Shown here one piece after another: positions 3,726 through 9,120 of a DNA stretch of 12,037 nt. Location of the stretch: the UHGV virus genome UHGV-0115279, one strand, 5' to 3'. Below the pieces are notes generated by a model that worked only from the letters and a program-made list of their open reading frames with translations, had not been told where the DNA came from and did not search any database. Position 1 is the stretch's first letter. The number at the start of each line of letters is the position of its first letter. The position numbers and the translations under genes were made by a program. Origin of the DNA: a virus.

Positions 3726-3743
3726 GCGCCCCGCACGGGGCGC
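3726..3743 (-). promoter_or_regulatory. strong GC stem-loop in the head-sheath intergenic region
   Basis: Perfect inverted repeat gcgccccg/cggggcgc (7-bp GC stem with a 4-nt loop) between the head gene stop (3770) and the sheath gene start (3710). No U-tract follows, so it is not a classical intrinsic terminator; it may affect mRNA stability or processing. Confidence 0.4.
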
Positions 3744-3769: not shown

Positions 3770-4951
3770 TTACTCAGAGTCACCGGCATCAATCGTGTCG
3801 CCGCTTATAAAGTTAAGCCCGCCTTTTTTGGCCATTGTCAGCGTTACACGAGTGAAGTAATCAGCGCCGTTGCGTGGGTGCATATCGTTGATAGCCGAAC
3901 CCCACAGCGTGGTACGGTTGACCAGCGCCGGAGTGGTCGGATGCTGGAACGGGATGGCCGGGACAGCATCACCAGTCACGAAGCCTGCTTTACCCGGATT
4001 TTCATCACGGACGTAGCACAGCACATCCATCGAGCTGAACTGAATGTTCTCTGTCGTTAAGTTCTTACAAATACCAGCAGGTACTTCGTACACTTTCACG
4101 TTACCGAACAGGGTACCGATGTAGTGAACATACGGAGTCTGGATATAGTCTTCGGCTGACTGGAAGAAATCCTTCGGCAACTGTTTGAAGAAAGATGCTG
4201 CATCAGCACCAGCAAACATCCCCATCGCACCAGAAGATTTAACGCGCTCAATAATGTCGCGATATACAGTCTGGAATTTGCCACGAATGATGGTTGCCCA
4301 TACATCAAAGGACTGGTTAACCGGCAGAGCGATGTCAAAGGTGTCGGTCGCAAGAGTACGCCAGATCATGATGCGAAGACGCAGCATATCCTGTTCATGA
4401 GACAGGTATTCCTTCAGGGTGCGGAACTGTAGGGAACCCAGGTCCAGACCAAATTCACGCTGTGCTTCATACGCCGCCTGTACCGTGTGCTCAGCCGCGA
4501 TAACGAACTGACTTGGGAACAGGGTGTATTTCTTCATTTCGTGGTTGATCAGCGGGATCAGCTCAGGAGCGGCTTCAATATTGATTTCCGTCTCAATTGC
4601 GATCTCAGTGCCTTTATCCGGCGCTTTGGAGAACGACAGGGCAATCTGACCAATGTTGTAGTTCAGAGAGCAGGTAACAGTGATTTGCTCACCAGCAGCA
4701 TTAGTAAACGAGTGAAGTAGGCTGCCGGAACCGTTATCAACAACAGACTTAATACGGTTAACGTAGATGTTAGTGCGACCTTTTCGGATTGGTACATTCT
4801 GGCCTTCGAAGTCTTCCATCTTGAAGGTTGCGGTTTTGCTGGTGCCATCGGAGCTTGCCAGCAGCATAAGAACCAAAAGATGAACCTGCCACGTTAAAGA
4901 CTTCATAGATGTCGGACTGGTCACGCGTAACCGGAATGAAGGTACACGCAT
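3770..4951 (-). CDS. major head (capsid) protein, C-terminal ~365 codons; the upstream part appears to continue in another frame
   Basis: 393-aa ORF with no convincing RBS at its annotated ATG (4951) and a non-protein-like N-terminal ~30 aa, while the sequence from ..SSDGTSKTATFKMEDFEGQ onward looks like genuine protein. It overlaps the 4770..5432 ORF by 182 nt in a different frame. Confidence 0.6.
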   Translation of the reverse strand: MRVPSFRLRVTSPTSMKSLTWQVHLLVLMLLASSDGTSKTATFKMEDFEGQNVPIRKGRTNIYVNRIKSVVDNGSGSLLHSFTNAAGEQITVTCSLNYNIGQIALSFSKAPDKGTEIAIETEINIEAAPELIPLINHEMKKYTLFPSQFVIAAEHTVQAAYEAQREFGLDLGSLQFRTLKEYLSHEQDMLRLRIMIWRTLATDTFDIALPVNQSFDVWATIIRGKFQTVYRDIIERVKSSGAMGMFAGADAASFFKQLPKDFFQSAEDYIQTPYVHYIGTLFGNVKVYEVPAGICKNLTTENIQFSSMDVLCYVRDENPGKAGFVTGDAVPAIPFQHPTTPALVNRTTLWGSAINDMHPRNGADYFTRVTLTMAKKGGLNFISGDTIDAGDSE

Positions 4952-5432
4952 CAGCGGTAGCTGCCCCCAACTGAACAGGCAGGATCATCGCGAGGAATAA
5001 AGGCAGACGCATAACACCGTCAGAAACGCTCATCATCTCTGCTGCGACGGATTCCAGCATCGCTTTATTAGTGGCATCCATGCTATTGCGGGTGGACTCA
5101 ATCAGGCAGTTTTCCAGCGTCTGGTGGCAGGAGGCCAGAATTTCCGGACGCGGCATAGATTTATGTGCTGCGGCGTAGTCAGCCAGTGCACTTGCCCACG
5201 CTGTAGCGATTTGAGCGGTGGCATTATCAGAGATACCCGCAAAAACCGGGTCTTTACGTGCAGCTTCAAGGATAGATGCGGCACGCGCGGCATCATCTTT
5301 AATGAATTGGTTATCAGTACCGAACTGCGCAGTGCTTGCCCAGCCAAGCACAGCTTTAGAGCGTTTTGCGATATCTGCAATACGATTCTGGTATTCGCGT
5401 AAGTTACTCAATTTACTCTTCCTTAAACACAA
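4770..5432 (-). CDS. major head (capsid) protein, N-terminal portion (Ala-rich helical delta/scaffold-like domain), frame-shifted relative to 3770..4951
   Basis: The 220-aa ORF in the track begins at a TTG. The likely true start is the in-frame TTG at 5411..5409, preceded by AAGGAAG with 6-nt spacing. The N-terminal part is Ala-rich and protein-like; the last ~28 aa (KLRWHQQNRNLQDGRLRRPECTNPKRSH) look like out-of-frame read-through. Confidence 0.55.
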   Translation of the reverse strand: MCLRKSKLSNLREYQNRIADIAKRSKAVLGWASTAQFGTDNQFIKDDAARAASILEAARKDPVFAGISDNATAQIATAWASALADYAAAHKSMPRPEILASCHQTLENCLIESTRNSMDATNKAMLESVAAEMMSVSDGVMRLPLFLAMILPVQLGAATADACTFIPVTRDQSDIYEVFNVAGSSFGSYAAGKLRWHQQNRNLQDGRLRRPECTNPKRSH

Positions 5433-5454
5433 GGCACTTGTGTGAATCCCTTTT

Positions 5455-5495
5455 CGGAAGAGATTTTATTGAAAGTCACTTGTTGACTTTCTCGT
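5455..5495 (-). promoter_or_regulatory. putative phage late promoter for the head-sheath operon (palindromic activator site plus -10)
   Basis: A 21-bp palindrome with 8-bp arms, GAAAGTCA-ACAAG-TGACTTTC (5471..5491), is followed 2 nt downstream on the minus strand by TAAAAT (5468..5463). This puts the palindrome centre near -25, with no -35 hexamer, about 45 nt upstream of the head gene start. The architecture matches what I recall of P1 late promoters (Lpa-dependent). Confidence 0.4.
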
Positions 5496-5547
5496 GACAA
5501 GCAATTTTTTTATTTTTTTCGGGAGTAGGGGAGGAAGGTAAAATCCA

Positions 5548-5634
5548 AGGTGAAATCGTGGCGATTTCACCTTGAAATTTTAGAGGGATTTACTTTAAAA
5601 ACAGTAGGTTAATAGTGAAATTTGAATGGCGAAA
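5548..5634 (-). other. parS: parS partition site (plasmid centromere) with heptamer box A and hexamer box B motifs flanking an AT-rich IHF-type spacer
   Basis: Minus-strand reading directly after the parB stop: TTTAAACTTTCGCCATTCAAATTTCACTATTAACCTACTGTTTTTAAAGTAAATCCCTCTAAAATTTCAAGGTGAAATCGCCACGATTTCAC. It contains TCGCCA (box B) twice and ATTTCAC/GTGAAAT (box A) in both orientations, matching the phage P1 parS layout as I recall it. Confidence 0.85.
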
Positions 5635-5636
5635 GT

Positions 5637-6638
5637 TTAAGGCTTCGGCTTTTTATCGAGGCTCTTTCTAAGGATATGCCCAATCATCCTGTCGAGTTCT
5701 TCCTGTAGCTCTTTTGAAAGTCGATTAAACTCATAAGAAAATGCACGGCCTTTCACGCGCTTCCTTGCAAAGCGATCCTTGTCCTCAAATTTCCATAATT
5801 CAGTAACTACGGACTTATCTTTAGAACCTTTATCCGTGAGTAGTGAGGCTTCCTTTGTTATCAAGCGCAGGATTTTATTTTTAACTTCATCTTCGGCCAT
5901 TTCTTCAATGGATAAGATGTCGTTTATTTCCGGGGATATGTTTTGAATAAGCTGATCAAACTCTAAATTCTTGTTCCCCATTTCGTCGCCAACAGCACAA
6001 AGCGTTTTGTAGTCCGAAAAGGTTAATTCCGACTGCACAGGGAAAAGGGCGACTAATTCTTCCGGAGCACTCGCTGCCTGGAGAGCACGCGTGACCTTCG
6101 CCTGAGACAGCCCTTCTTTGGCTGCAATATCCTTCTGACTCATCCCATCATTTTTCATTCGCATCAAACGCAGACCTATTTCTCGAATGCTGTGCTGCAA
6201 TGCTGTCTGAACGTCTTTCGCTAAATTTTGCGCTTCCTGAACGCTGATCTCCTGGTCCGTGACTAAAACCCGCAACCCTACGTTCTCTAAGATGGCAGAA
6301 GCTCGACGCCGGGAACCATCCAAAATTTCAATTTTCCCTGTAGCCCGTCTAACACCTATTGCAGGGTAAAATTGCTGATGCTTAATAGTGCTTCGGATAC
6401 TTTTTAATGATTTTGGCGTAAGAGATGTCTGGTCACGCCCGTTGTTATGCTGATCAACAAAGGTATCGCTTTCTACCTGGTTCGGAGGTATTACCTCTTC
6501 AATAAATGTGGCCTGGCGACCAGTTGATAACTTGAATACCTGCTCGACTCGATCGCCAGAGGCTGAAGAACTATCAAATCCGCTTAATATTGAAGGATTA
6601 AGGGTTCGCCCAATTGTTGGTCTGTTTTTCTTTGACAT
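5637..6638 (-). CDS. parB: ParB partition protein (centromere-binding, P1 type)
   Basis: 333-aa ORF with ATG at 6638..6636 and a GAGGAG SD that overlaps the parA stop codon. N-terminus MSKKNRPTIGRTLNPSILSGFD.. and the arginine patch ..ILDGSRRRASAIL.. are typical of ParB, and it sits between parA and parS. Length and sequence match P1 ParB as far as I can recall. Confidence 0.9.
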   Translation of the reverse strand: MSKKNRPTIGRTLNPSILSGFDSSSASGDRVEQVFKLSTGRQATFIEEVIPPNQVESDTFVDQHNNGRDQTSLTPKSLKSIRSTIKHQQFYPAIGVRRATGKIEILDGSRRRASAILENVGLRVLVTDQEISVQEAQNLAKDVQTALQHSIREIGLRLMRMKNDGMSQKDIAAKEGLSQAKVTRALQAASAPEELVALFPVQSELTFSDYKTLCAVGDEMGNKNLEFDQLIQNISPEINDILSIEEMAEDEVKNKILRLITKEASLLTDKGSKDKSVVTELWKFEDKDRFARKRVKGRAFSYEFNRLSKELQEELDRMIGHILRKSLDKKPKP

Positions 6639-6654: not shown

Positions 6655-7851
6655 TCAGTTAGATCTGATAAATTCAATACGGTCAAAAACTGCTTTAGCA
6701 AAATCTTCCGCAGCAATTCGCGCGTTCTTCAATGCATCAGCACTACCAACATACGTTGCCGGGTTAGCTGAAATAACAGTGTCAAAAGACTCGCCGCAGC
6801 GTTCAAAACCGTCAAGGCGAGGGAGGACAACATCAAGCATATCCCCACCGAACACTTCTTTAGCCAGGCTATGGCAATACTTATGGTCTGCCTTGTTACT
6901 CAACTTGGACATAAAACCAATGTTAGTTGCAAGCTGACACTCGCAGCCTTCATCCGAAATGAGTTTCACCAACTCAGGAAGGCGGGCAACGTATTTAAGC
7001 GATGAGTGGAAATCAACCGTTGCAGGCGGCAGAGGTGTAAACAGTATATTGGCCGAGGCCAAAGCATTTTTCAGGAAGGCGTCAAGGTGAGGACCACTAT
7101 CAACGAGGATAAAGTCATAATCGCTCTTCAGCTTATCAATCACATTTTCTTTCAGGACTGCATGGATGTTCTGACCCGGTAGATGCTCATTGCACAGCTC
7201 TCTCCAATCGGATGCAATAAAGGCATCGTCAATCGACGCAGGCATAACGTCAACCCCAGGTACAACAGAAGGAACAATAAACTCCTCTAACAGCTCTTCA
7301 CGGCTTACATTCTGCAACATAGCCTGTGCAGATGTTGCGTTTACGATACCAATAGAGTGTTTATGGCTTAAAAACATCGTTGCTGAAGATTGCGGATCAA
7401 GGTCAATAACCAGAATCCTTAAATCTTCCATCAGAAGATGAGGATGAGCACGCATTGCATGCGCCAGAGAAACCGTCGATACAGTTTTTGACACACCGCC
7501 TTTAAGATTGGAGATGAAAATCACATACGCTTCGCTGTAGCGATCCCGGTATTTTGGCACTCCGCGATGTTCATATATGTCAATGATGTTCTGAATTGAC
7601 ATCGCATATTTCATTGAAGAGCCAGCAGGGCGTTTATCGAAAACATAACCCTTTTCTTCCATTTCACTTACGGCATAGTCAACGTTCGCACGAGTCAGTA
7701 GAGGCAATTTTGCCAGTGCCGCTTTCGCATAGACCTGGTAAAACTCGTTCGCGTGTAGCTCATCCTTTTGCAACTGTACTTGTTCAGTCAGAACATTGAG
7801 CATTCTATTTGCTCTTTGAGCAACCTTGTGAAGCTGGCTGGAATCACTCAT
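6655..7851 (-). CDS. parA: ParA partition ATPase (type Ia, with N-terminal autoregulatory DNA-binding extension)
   Basis: 398-aa ORF with ATG at 7851..7849 and an AAGGA SD. It has the deviant Walker A motif NLKGGVSKTVSTV and a ~100-aa N-terminal extension, and lies immediately upstream of parB. Length and sequence match P1 ParA as I recall it. Confidence 0.9.
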   Translation of the reverse strand: MSDSSQLHKVAQRANRMLNVLTEQVQLQKDELHANEFYQVYAKAALAKLPLLTRANVDYAVSEMEEKGYVFDKRPAGSSMKYAMSIQNIIDIYEHRGVPKYRDRYSEAYVIFISNLKGGVSKTVSTVSLAHAMRAHPHLLMEDLRILVIDLDPQSSATMFLSHKHSIGIVNATSAQAMLQNVSREELLEEFIVPSVVPGVDVMPASIDDAFIASDWRELCNEHLPGQNIHAVLKENVIDKLKSDYDFILVDSGPHLDAFLKNALASANILFTPLPPATVDFHSSLKYVARLPELVKLISDEGCECQLATNIGFMSKLSNKADHKYCHSLAKEVFGGDMLDVVLPRLDGFERCGESFDTVISANPATYVGSADALKNARIAAEDFAKAVFDRIEFIRSN

Positions 7852-7990
7852 CGAAAGCCATCCTTTATGCTGTATTTTTGAATTTAATTAAAAATGCTGC
7901 ATAAAATAATAATGTATGCGTAGATGCTTGTACATAGCATTCTCTGCATGTTTGGTTCATTTTGCACGATTGAGAGTTACAAGGAGGGCA
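7852..7990 (-). promoter_or_regulatory. par operon promoter/operator region
   Basis: AT-rich 140-bp leader between the upstream terminator and the parA ATG, containing imperfect palindromes (e.g. ATGCTTGTACATAGCAT at 7924..7940; tgcata..tatgcg at 7879..7899). These are plausible sites for ParA autorepression; exact -35/-10 hexamers not assigned. Confidence 0.5.
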
Positions 7991-8014
7991 CAAAAAAGCC
8001 CCGTTCAGGGGCAT
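7991..8014 (-). terminator. rho-independent terminator of the 269-aa gene, insulating the par promoter
   Basis: Minus-strand RNA has GCCCC-UGAAC-GGGGC followed by UUUUUUGUG, beginning 6 nt after the TAA stop of the 8020..8829 CDS. Confidence 0.7.
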
Positions 8015-8019
8015 CAGTG

Positions 8020-8829
8020 TTATTTGCTAAGAGCAGCGAATAATCGTTCGAAATCGATAGTATCTATAGCACGCGTAAGCGCCGGAAGTTCAGCCTCAAA
8101 GTACCCGTGTCGATCGTAAAAGAAGGGACCGAAGAGCGAGGCATGTTGGATTCTACTTCGCCCCAGCCCGGACACACAGTTAAGCCCATTACCGGCTAAA
8201 AGGCTAAAAAACTTCTCTGGATTATCGTGGTAAAGCTGGGAATCAATGGTGGCGGTTAACTCTTCCATAGGGAAGCACACCCGCCCTGTATCCCAGGGAT
8301 ATTTAGTCCGAAGCATAAACATTGCTTTCAGCAATTCACATTGAGCGCGGATCGCGTCCGGTTCATAGCCAGATATGGAGACATAAGCCACGTCCCTCAT
8401 TCCTGCGTCATCTTTGAAAGTCACGATAGAAGTAACATCCAGCTCTTTTTCGAAAGAGCAAGCAGCATCTACTGGACGCTGAAGTAAATCATTCGACTTA
8501 ATGCGCTCGAGAATCCCTCCCCACATATCATTTAGATATTCGATATGAGCCAAAACCTTATCAAGACACTCTCGTGTAAACCATTCAGTATGCCCGCCAC
8601 CGACGCTTTTCTCCCACGGCGCATTCCAGGGGAAAAAGGTTGCGTGTAAAGCCCGCTCAAGATTAACCATTGCCAAACGCGTACCACGATAGACCCGTGA
8701 AAGCGCAAAATCGGGACTCACTTGTAGCCCTTTAAACCGTGCCAATGGACCACATGAAATGCCGATTTTAAAAGTATCTCCGTTCTCTGGCACCAGAACG
8801 TAGAGGTAGTGTTGTTTCTCTTCTTGCAT
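8020..8829 (-). CDS. GIY-YIG / T5orf172-like domain protein with uncharacterised C-terminal domain (candidate accessory, defence or anti-defence gene)
   Basis: 269-aa ORF with ATG at 8829..8827, weak SD, TAA stop and its own intrinsic terminator. The N-terminal ~90 aa (HYLYVLVPENGDTFKIGIS...R...LERALHATFF...GGGHTEWF) follows the Y-x-Y-[VI]-L ... KIG-x-[ST] ... R ... E..LH ... TEWF pattern of the GIY-YIG-related T5orf172 (MUG113-like) family. Residues ~100-269 have no motif I recognise. Confidence 0.75.
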   Translation of the reverse strand: MQEEKQHYLYVLVPENGDTFKIGISCGPLARFKGLQVSPDFALSRVYRGTRLAMVNLERALHATFFPWNAPWEKSVGGGHTEWFTRECLDKVLAHIEYLNDMWGGILERIKSNDLLQRPVDAACSFEKELDVTSIVTFKDDAGMRDVAYVSISGYEPDAIRAQCELLKAMFMLRTKYPWDTGRVCFPMEELTATIDSQLYHDNPEKFFSLLAGNGLNCVSGLGRSRIQHASLFGPFFYDRHGYFEAELPALTRAIDTIDFERLFAALSK

Positions 8830-8863
8830 ATCAATACCACTGCTTGATGAGAACCGCGCAAAT

Positions 8864-9120
8864 GTTGACTATGCGCGAAGGTTAATGTGAATAGTTGACT
8901 ATGCGCGATGTGACTACAGTCAAAAGTTGACTGTAGTCGATTTAACTCCACCAAAGATCGACTATGTAAGATATTGTCGGGAGAAACGTTGACTATACGC
9001 GATGAAATGCCCCTAAAAGCCATCTCAATAGCGACTTGCAGAATATTGACGCCAGCAAAAATCCACCAGCGTCAACGAATGTCGCCTATAGTCAACTTCT
9101 CGCTATCGCATATAGTCAAT
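8864..9120. repeat. incA: incA-like iteron array downstream of repA (copy-number control locus)
   Basis: Multiple copies of a ~14-bp core GTTGACTATGCGCG: direct at 8864..8877, 8894..8907 and 8988..9001; inverted at 9083..9096 and 9107..9120; degenerate copies at 8958..8966 and about 9046..9076. A head-to-head pair forms a perfect 12-bp inverted repeat (8912..8923 / 8927..8938). The last copy abuts the repA stop codon. Confidence 0.8.

Follow-up and report, generated by a model that had tools for sequence, protein, structure and literature searches.

The DNA analysed here, a stretch of 12,037 nt that we call the window, is 100% identical, in a single piece, to positions 84846..96882 of plasmid unnamed2 of E. 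coli CB6886, a circular plasmid of 97.6 kb. Around parS and LP23, the identity of the window to phage P1 (AF234172 / NC_005856) is 99.5%, and several P1-like phage-plasmids show identities of 99.7-99.8% in the same region. Features of the P1 record were placed on the window by coordinate transfer (AF234172 position = window + 53362). The genes parA, parB, 23, 22 and 21 are all located on the minus strand. The assignment of parA (6655..7851) is based on the ORF list, the P1 record and the plasmid annotation; parB (5637..6638), encoding a centromere-binding partition protein of 333 aa, is an ORF whose product is named ParB in P1 and “ParB family protein” in the plasmid. Gene 23, encoding the major capsid protein, occupies positions 3770..5411, with a TTG start at 5411, and genes 22 and 21 are present downstream of it, according to both the ORFs of the window and the P1 record. 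In P1, the late operon read from LP23 consists of 23 (capsid), 22 (sheath), 21, pmgG and bplB. Alignment with P1 and the PGAP annotation identify gene 23 of the window as a pseudogene. It contains a 65-bp deletion between 9-bp direct repeats (junction 4866/4867) that shifts the reading frame; the missing 65 bp are present in 17 of 17 full-length phage matches, and PGAP labels the plasmid gene as “frameshifted”. The upstream replicon region is unlike that of the P1 reference, and a GIY-YIG nuclease gene is present.

The centromere directly follows the P1-type parA-parB operon, of which the parB stop is at 5637. Mapping of the AF234172 features, combined with the repeats and a P1/P7 alignment, shows a minus-strand parS of the P1 species type that spans 5550..5632 and deviates by no more than 2 bp from the limits (5548..5634) given in an earlier note on this DNA. 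According to the AF234172 mapping, its elements, all on the minus strand, are box B1 (5627..5632), box A1 (5615..5621), the IHF site (5599..5611), box A2 (5572..5578), box A3 (5564..5570), box B2 (5559..5564) and box A4 (5550..5556). The region thus contains the four box A heptamers (ATTTCAC/ATTTCAA) and the two box B hexamers (TCGCCA) that characterise a P1-type parS, and all six boxes are identical to those of P1 and equally spaced. There are four differences from P1 within parS, all outside the ParB boxes. Two of them are in the IHF site between the parS arms, at positions that belong to the degenerate middle (NNNN) of the IHF consensus. An Rfam search of the region 5300..5750 returned only sub-threshold chance matches, on the parS hairpin. 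P1-type parS sites function in ParA/ParB-dependent partition and determine incB incompatibility.

The other side of parS is occupied by a promoter that has already been annotated at this site, as “predicted late promoter LP23”, in the records of P1 (AF234172) and P7 (AF503408). Its elements are on the minus strand. The “-22 region”, a 9-bp inverted repeat AAGTGACTT that is a putative Lpa site, is located at 5473..5481 on the basis of AF234172, AF503408 and the consensus of 11 promoters described below. The -10 hexamer TAAAAT (5463..5468) was assigned from the sequence, the P1 record and the promoter alignment, and is separated from the Lpa box by 4 bp, TCAA. The position of the -10 predicts a transcription start at 5455..5457, 6-8 nt past the hexamer. 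When the -10 is taken as -12..-7, the centre of the Lpa box (5477) is at about -21/-22. LP23 points away from parS, with about 70 bp of DNA separating the two, and 52 bp lie between it and the start codon of gene 23 downstream; its predicted start and the closest ParB box are about 94 bp apart. A -35 hexamer was not recognisable, and a sigma-70 scan of the minus strand from 5400 to 5640 gave no promoter. The P1 record also predicts two overlapping sigma-70 promoters, P1 23 and P2 23, both of which are missed by our scan; the spacer of the former is 21 bp.

The Lpa-dependent late promoters of P1 need Lpa, and also the host protein SspA, and start about 7 nt after the -10. We extracted the 11 annotated P1 late promoters (LP23, LPs, LPdar, LPsit, LPpro, LPlyz, LPmat, LP26, LPpmgL, LPhot and LPpac) and set them in register, which resulted in the consensus (A/G)AC-AAGTNACTT-N4-TANNNT. 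The corresponding sequence in the window, tcAAC-AAGTGACTT-tcaa-TAAAAT, conforms perfectly to this consensus, with AAGTGACTT at 5481..5473 matching 8 of 8 specified positions of AAGTNACTT. The pattern AAGTNACTT-N4-TANNNT has a single exact match in the window, at LP23, where 0.14 matches are expected even with one mismatch allowed. The other P1 late promoters resemble LP23 in having AAGTNACTT near -22, a TANNNT -10, no -35 and usually AC before the box, and in 9 of these 10 the gap between box and -10 is also 4 bp (LPhot has 9 bp). They differ from LP23 in that only the latter adjoins a centromere. The conserved 9-bp inverted repeat of all 11 P1 late promoters is stated to be the Lpa-binding site (PMC10695390).

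Three further candidates near LP23 were rejected. A further sequence resembling a late promoter, at 5401..5419 on the plus strand, was considered to be due to chance: its last box position is mismatched, it overlaps codons 2-4 of gene 23 and it is not conserved in Cronobacter phage JK004. The same holds for a leader sequence that nearly repeats the box, AAGTGCCTT (5439..5431), which is mismatched where 11 of 11 promoters have an A and shows no conservation in JK004. Finally, a C1 operator at the site was dismissed, as only 7 of 17 positions match, by eye, the operator consensus, and no C1 operator is annotated there.

Published data fit the position of LP23. In a genome-wide CRISPRi study of P1, dCas12a roadblocks were strongly polar; roadblocks in parB and parA left the plating of P1 unchanged (EOP 1.3 and 1.6, respectively), and knockdowns of 23, 22, 21, pmgG and bplB were lethal for the phage (PMC10695390). 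Since P1 tolerates the roadblocks in parA and parB but not the knockdowns of 23, 22 and 21, the origin of the essential gene 23 transcript must be downstream of the parB target, in agreement with LP23. A limited literature search did not find a mapped 5' end or an Lpa-dependence test specific to LP23. The P1 record annotates a C1 operator, Olpa, at lpa. Because LP23 has no -35 and needs Lpa, and lpa is annotated as being under the control of Olpa, LP23 should be off in the plasmid state. The start point of LP23, its dependence on Lpa and its silence in the lysogen are inferred, while the sequence identities, the match to the consensus, the pattern of conservation and the annotation are shown directly.

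The earlier note had described the site as a 21-bp palindrome with a TAAAAT -10 just downstream, a layout like that of the activator-dependent late promoters of P1. The palindrome, found by an inverted-repeat search at 5471..5491, is real. In minus-strand writing it reads GAAAGTCA-ACAAG-TGACTTTC, with perfect 8-bp arms GAAAGTCA/TGACTTTC at 5471..5478 and 5484..5491 and a 5-nt spacer. The TAAAAT hexamer is where it was said to be, on the minus strand at 5468..5463, two bases past the palindrome, and the distance of about 55 bp given between parS and palindrome agrees with the 58 bp that we count from box A4 (5550) to the palindrome edge (5491). An Lpa-type promoter for the gene 23 operon is likewise supported by the LP23 annotation and the consensus match, but the activator site is the 9-bp repeat and not the 21-bp palindrome. 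The promoter-proximal arm of the palindrome overlaps the Lpa box, and the distal arm corresponds to 5484..5491. The centre of the palindrome is at 5481, about -25, compared with 5477 for the box, so the palindrome consists of the Lpa box (about -21/-22) plus an extra upstream arm. That the late-promoter signal is the 9-bp box rather than the larger palindrome matters for the design of reporter constructs; for a box mutant, we designed AACTGAGTT as the mutated form of AAGTGACTT.

The spacer between parS and LP23 contains two tracts, both considered on the minus strand. A CT-rich tract, ACCTTCCTCCCCTACTCCCG (5520..5539), falls within the “CT/AT-rich region” annotated in K02380; it is rich in pyrimidines, with no conservation of the actual sequence in P7 or JK004. 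An A-rich tract, AAAAAAATAAAAAAATT (5503..5519), covers roughly positions -47 to -63 of LP23. Degenerate in JK004, it is conserved in P1-type and P7-type elements, in pHum4b and in the viral contig L097. Judging from its sequence, the A-rich tract may be UP-element-like.

We aligned the region with P1-type and P7-type plasmids, the IncHI plasmid pHum4b, which contains a P7-like par fragment, phage JK004 and contig L097; the viral-contig scan left out 47 more distant capsid-gene relatives. The capsid proteins of JK004 and L097 are 77.5% and 80% identical, respectively. The Lpa box AAGTGACTT is invariant in 11 of 11 aligned relatives, and no relative that still has the promoter has lost the AC before the box, the 4-bp gap or a TANNNT hexamer. 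Between L097 and the window, the promoter block 5463..5496 is 94% identical, whereas identity is 58% in parS, 65% in the spacer and 57% in the leader, which makes LP23 a conserved island. The gene order parB-parS-LP23-gene 23 is kept in P1, P7, JK004 and L097, with JK004 having the complete arrangement parA-parB-parS-spacer-LP23-gene 23. By contrast, the capsid gene of phage D6 has no adjoining par locus, and no recognisable P1-type box was found upstream of it.

Among known systems, the closest is P1 itself, which has the same elements in the same order, spacing and strand. The corresponding 281-bp region is 98.2% identical, and the ParB boxes, Lpa box, 4-bp gap and -10 are identical to those of the window. 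The window differs from P1 by five substitutions in parS plus spacer, all outside the ParB boxes, as well as by the frameshifting deletion in gene 23 and by its replicon region. P7 (AF503408) has the same layout, a nearly identical promoter and leader and LP23 at the equivalent position, but its parS and spacer are of the P7 specificity type and an additional GC-rich hairpin separates its parB from parS. When the P1 and P7 types are compared, parS plus spacer are 57-59% identical and promoter plus leader 94-98%. The centromere and the promoter thus behave as separable modules, joined in an A/T-rich stretch, and not as one co-evolved unit.

Taken together, the region is very probably an ordinary junction of two well-known modules of phage P1, par/parS and the Lpa-dependent promoter LP23. 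According to this explanation, the parA-parB operon ends at 5637 and ParB and IHF would build the partition complex on the adjoining parS. Beyond the CT-rich and A-rich spacer, LP23 would be made up of AAGTGACTT near -22, the 4-bp gap and TAAAAT, with no -35. In the plasmid state LP23 would be silent, lpa being under C1 control, and after induction transcription would be initiated near 5456 by Lpa acting together with the RNA polymerase of the host. The 21-bp palindrome would then be the Lpa box with an upstream arm specific to LP23. Both parS and LP23 were already known, being annotated in the GenBank records of P1 and P7; finding them side by side in the window is a rediscovery of annotated features and carries little weight.

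The earlier statement that there is no terminator between parB and the promoter is essentially right. Between parB and LP23, the sole site on the minus strand that resembles a terminator is the parS palindrome (5576..5544, -21.7 kcal/mol), which is followed by TTTTACCTTC. Its U tract is poor, the four U's being paired with a run of A's upstream, and JK004 and some P7-type plasmids show no conservation of the tail after the hairpin. In view of this poor and unconserved tail, the parS hairpin is a weak possibility as a terminator of the par operon.

A different kind of element was observed between the -10 and the start of LP23. The sequence CUCUUCC (minus strand, 5462..5456) is the exact complement of the gene 23 Shine-Dalgarno (SD) sequence GGAAGAG (5422..5416, minus strand), which ends 4 nt before the TTG start. 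This anti-SD, which we delimited at 5456..5462 from the inverted repeat, folds and compensatory changes, is present only in transcripts begun upstream of LP23. The leader also contains a hairpin, ACACAAG-UGC-CUUGUGU (5427..5443, minus strand), supported by the inverted repeat and by minimum-energy folds. The anti-SD arrangement is possibly a new observation.

Since there is no good terminator between par and gene 23, read-through RNAs from upstream carry the anti-SD. This raises a further explanation, which would complement the junction of two P1 modules rather than replace it: the anti-SD, together with the CT-rich tract, would hide the ribosome-binding site of gene 23 on read-through RNA and leave RNA started at LP23 translatable. 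We consider this a credible proposal whose chances are somewhat below even. RNA folding predicts a sharp switch between 5' ends 5459 and 5462: the SD is free of pairing with a probability of 0.73-0.76 when the RNA begins at 5454-5459, and of 0.00-0.15 when it begins at 5462 or further upstream. In long read-through RNAs, the CT-rich tract is predicted to take over the pairing with the SD (fold of a 166-nt RNA). When the upstream extensions were shuffled, however, 11% sequestered the SD as well as the real sequence, and the LP23 start on which the switch depends is itself a predicted one.

The comparison with relatives points the same way, with similar reservations. In JK004 and L097, (U/C)CGUCCU pairs with AGGACAA, so that the 7-bp helix is kept with 4 of 7 pairs changed on both sides, compared with 0-1 in slid controls; these compensatory changes are limited to one lineage split, JK004/L097 versus the rest. 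The minimum-energy fold of JK004 contains the SD helix only when the anti-SD is included, but the predicted effect on SD accessibility in this phage is modest (from 0.60 to 0.39-0.52). Among the late promoters tested, the layout of LP23 recurs at LPdar, located before the holin gene lydA, and in weaker form at LPsit, whereas 4 of 7 (LPmat, LPpro, LPlyz and LPs) show no such effect.

There is a precedent for such a mechanism in phage T4, where the ribosome-binding site of genes e, soc, 49 and I-TevI is hidden on read-through RNAs and transcription from the late promoters begins inside the helix (PMC3014915). The layout at gene 23 is alike in that the 5' strand of the helix is upstream of the late start and that read-through RNAs alone would be blocked. 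It differs in that the T4 genes have a gp55 late promoter and the P1 gene has an Lpa box, and in that the blocked RNAs of P1, where the case is a predicted one, would come from the plasmid partition operon and not from early phage promoters. We tentatively suggest that the junction between parS and gene 23 might act as a transcript-origin filter made up of the anti-SD and the CT-rich tract and, given LPdar/lydA, possibly a general P1 device, although we regard the opposite as likelier. If true, the filter would explain how P1 can do without a terminator separating the partition operon from the capsid gene, and its apparent presence at LPdar/lydA too would make it perhaps a general means by which P1 keeps plasmid-state transcription from yielding late proteins.

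Another explanation treats the whole 21-bp palindrome as the functional unit, either as a symmetric protein site extending beyond the Lpa box or as a hairpin acting as terminator or insulator. We consider this unlikely. Its 8-bp arms are perfect, the corresponding RNA hairpin has a predicted energy of -9.1 kcal/mol (z = -3.75), and the stretch GAGAAAGTCAACAAGTGACTTT is invariant in the P1 type, the P7 type and pHum4b, the latter being one rearranged record. P1-type and P7-type elements, pHum4b and L097 all share a conserved distal arm, which in L097 persists although the flanks have diverged. Against this, the distal arm is absent from all ten other annotated P1 late promoters, LP23 being the only one in which it completes a 21-bp palindrome. 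Moreover, the distal arm has three mismatches in JK004 and, in L097, where the distal arm is retained, the proximal arm has one; neither is accompanied by compensating changes, which indicates that the symmetry of the 21-bp element is not what is conserved. An 8-bp perfect palindrome is by itself unremarkable: the window contains five sites (10 nested hits) with perfect 8-bp arms and a short spacer, compared with 1.8 hits in simulated sequences, and about 1-2 palindromes of such size are expected per window by chance. A scan for the exact 21-mer, using one genome per species, found P1/P7-like contigs only, plus an unrelated coding-region match in a Bacteroidota MAG.

A role of the palindrome as a terminator was rejected, because the minus strand has no U tract after the hairpin, which our terminator scan did not flag, and on the plus strand the T run begins 14 nt past the hairpin stem, with an unexceptional fold (z = -1.84). 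We also gave no weight to the idea that the palindrome travels with par and not with gene 23: it arose from the observation that homology to pHum4b ends just after the palindrome, in that single rearranged record. The conservation of the distal arm is, however, a point against LP23 being an entirely ordinary Lpa-dependent promoter: the arm may have a role of its own, for example as a third AAGT half-site or as an upstream polymerase contact.

The earlier note had further proposed that ParB loaded at parS spreads over LP23 and dampens head and sheath expression in the plasmid state, the juxtaposition being a regulatory design. LP23 is indeed within 70-100 bp of the ParB boxes, a short distance compared with the kilobase-scale spreading that has been reported for ParB proteins (PMC5002424), there is no convincing terminator or other barrier between parS and LP23, and the order of the elements is kept in P1, P7, JK004 and L097. 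In these respects, the site resembles the known cases of silencing by spreading, P1 ParB-parS and F SopB-sopC, in which a centromere has a promoter inside the expected spreading zone. The published silencing is linked to overexpressed protein, however, and according to a review it is likely to be a result of ParB overexpression and is dispensable for partition (PMC5002424). LP23, in addition, needs an activator that is expected to be absent in the plasmid state, so that a promoter without a -35 and without Lpa should be off already, and little is left to dampen. It is also directed away from parS, and transcription would begin about 94 bp beyond the closest ParB box. The contrast in identity between the P1 and P7 types indicates module exchange and not co-adaptation, the D6 capsid gene has no par locus alongside, and in the CB6886 plasmid gene 23 is dead. 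A literature search on ParB and late promoters found nothing specific. The proposed dampening thus runs against both the Lpa dependence of the promoter and the link of silencing to excess ParB; with the two modules being separable, we consider it very improbable, unsupported rather than disproved.

In the CB6886 plasmid, the arrangement is partly vestigial: parS is a working centromere, and LP23 is intact in front of a dead capsid gene. Besides the block present in the window, which is flanked by IS421 and IS1, the plasmid retains phd/doc, lpa, pacA, a pacB stub, c1, cre and a split ref, with lpa and c1 both intact. Most late genes are gone, and no portal, tail, baseplate or lysis genes were recognisable in the plasmid. 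It also carries capsule-synthesis genes, tet(A), an autotransporter gene and many IS elements, and is a decayed, P1-derived resistance and capsule plasmid of E. coli. The window is thus a record of a P1-derived plasmid that keeps its maintenance modules while its virion genes decay.

An anti-Shine-Dalgarno sequence at 5456..5462 (minus strand) fills exactly the gap between the -10 element and the predicted +1 of LP23, the predicted P1-type late promoter that heads the major capsid gene, gene 23. Its pairing with the ribosome-binding site of gene 23 (5416..5422, minus strand) is predicted for read-through RNAs only, that is, for transcripts started upstream of LP23. The helix formed by these two sequences shows compensatory changes at four of its seven pairs in two diverged relatives, Cronobacter phage JK004 and viral contig L097. 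The same design is seen in phage P1 at LPdar, the holin operon's late promoter (lydA; P1 sequence L002, 31183..31217), which reads TACCAT-taCCTCCT-gacaacgt-AGGAGG, and the predicted accessibility of the Shine-Dalgarno sequence at LPdar/lydA falls from 0.46 to 0.14 on the read-through RNA.

A second late-promoter-like motif close to the consensus, AAGTTACTC-aatt-TACTCT, is located at 5401..5419 on the plus strand, opposite to that of LP23; it overlaps codons 2-4 of gene 23 and is oriented toward parS. This motif is not kept in JK004, and it is probably due to chance. In addition, the sequence ACAAGTGCCTT in the leader hairpin (5431..5441) matches 10 of the 11 positions of ACAAGTGACTT (5473..5483), which consists of AC plus the Lpa box, the inverted repeat said to bind the late promoter activator; the single mismatch in the leader copy falls where all 11 late promoters annotated in P1 have an A in the box.

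In the conjugative IncHI plasmid pHum4b (NZ_OR724977.1; L006, 1501..1720), the end of parB, parS and the spacer are P7-like, with about 80% identity. This P7-like segment breaks off precisely behind the LP23 box (GTGACTTT|G) and is followed by unrelated, partly IS-related DNA, an arrangement that is a singleton. In P7-type elements (L004, 650..700; alignment A1, P7-type rows), a GC-rich hairpin, GGGAGGCGGCTTTAGCCCCCTCCC, sits between the stop codon of parB and parS; it is absent from the P1 type and from the window.

Gene 23 itself (3770..5411, minus strand), flagged as frameshifted by PGAP, has lost 65 bp between 9-bp direct repeats (window 4858..4875, junction 4866/4867), resulting in a frameshift. 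These 65 bp are present in all 17 full-length phage matches and also in a near-identical plasmid of strain PCP06101. The interval from the stop codon of gene 23 to the start of gene 22 contains a perfect GC-rich hairpin, GCGCCCCG-tg-CGGGGCGC (3726..3743, minus strand), with no U tract 3' of it. This hairpin might stabilise an RNA 3' end or act as an attenuator setting the capsid-to-sheath ratio.

The source plasmid, NZ_JBVDMN010000004.1 (the window being its positions 84846..96882), is a decayed P1 derivative. It retains rep, par, phd/doc, cre, c1, lpa and pacA; portal, tail, baseplate and lysis genes are not recognisable on it. Also present are capsule-synthesis genes, tet(A), an autotransporter, a group II intron and many IS copies, and IS421 and IS1 flank the P1 block within the window. 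The match to the P1 reference ends just upstream of Ppar, and the region 7950..9120, which includes ORF 8020..8829 (minus strand), differs: in the window, as in many P1-like plasmids, a GIY-YIG nuclease gene and a different, RepFIB/RepB-type replication region replace P1 incA/repA. The stretch that separates the GIY-YIG gene from the gene for the replication initiator contains a perfect palindrome of 8-10 bp, CTACAGTCAAAAGTTGACTGTAG, at 8914..8936.
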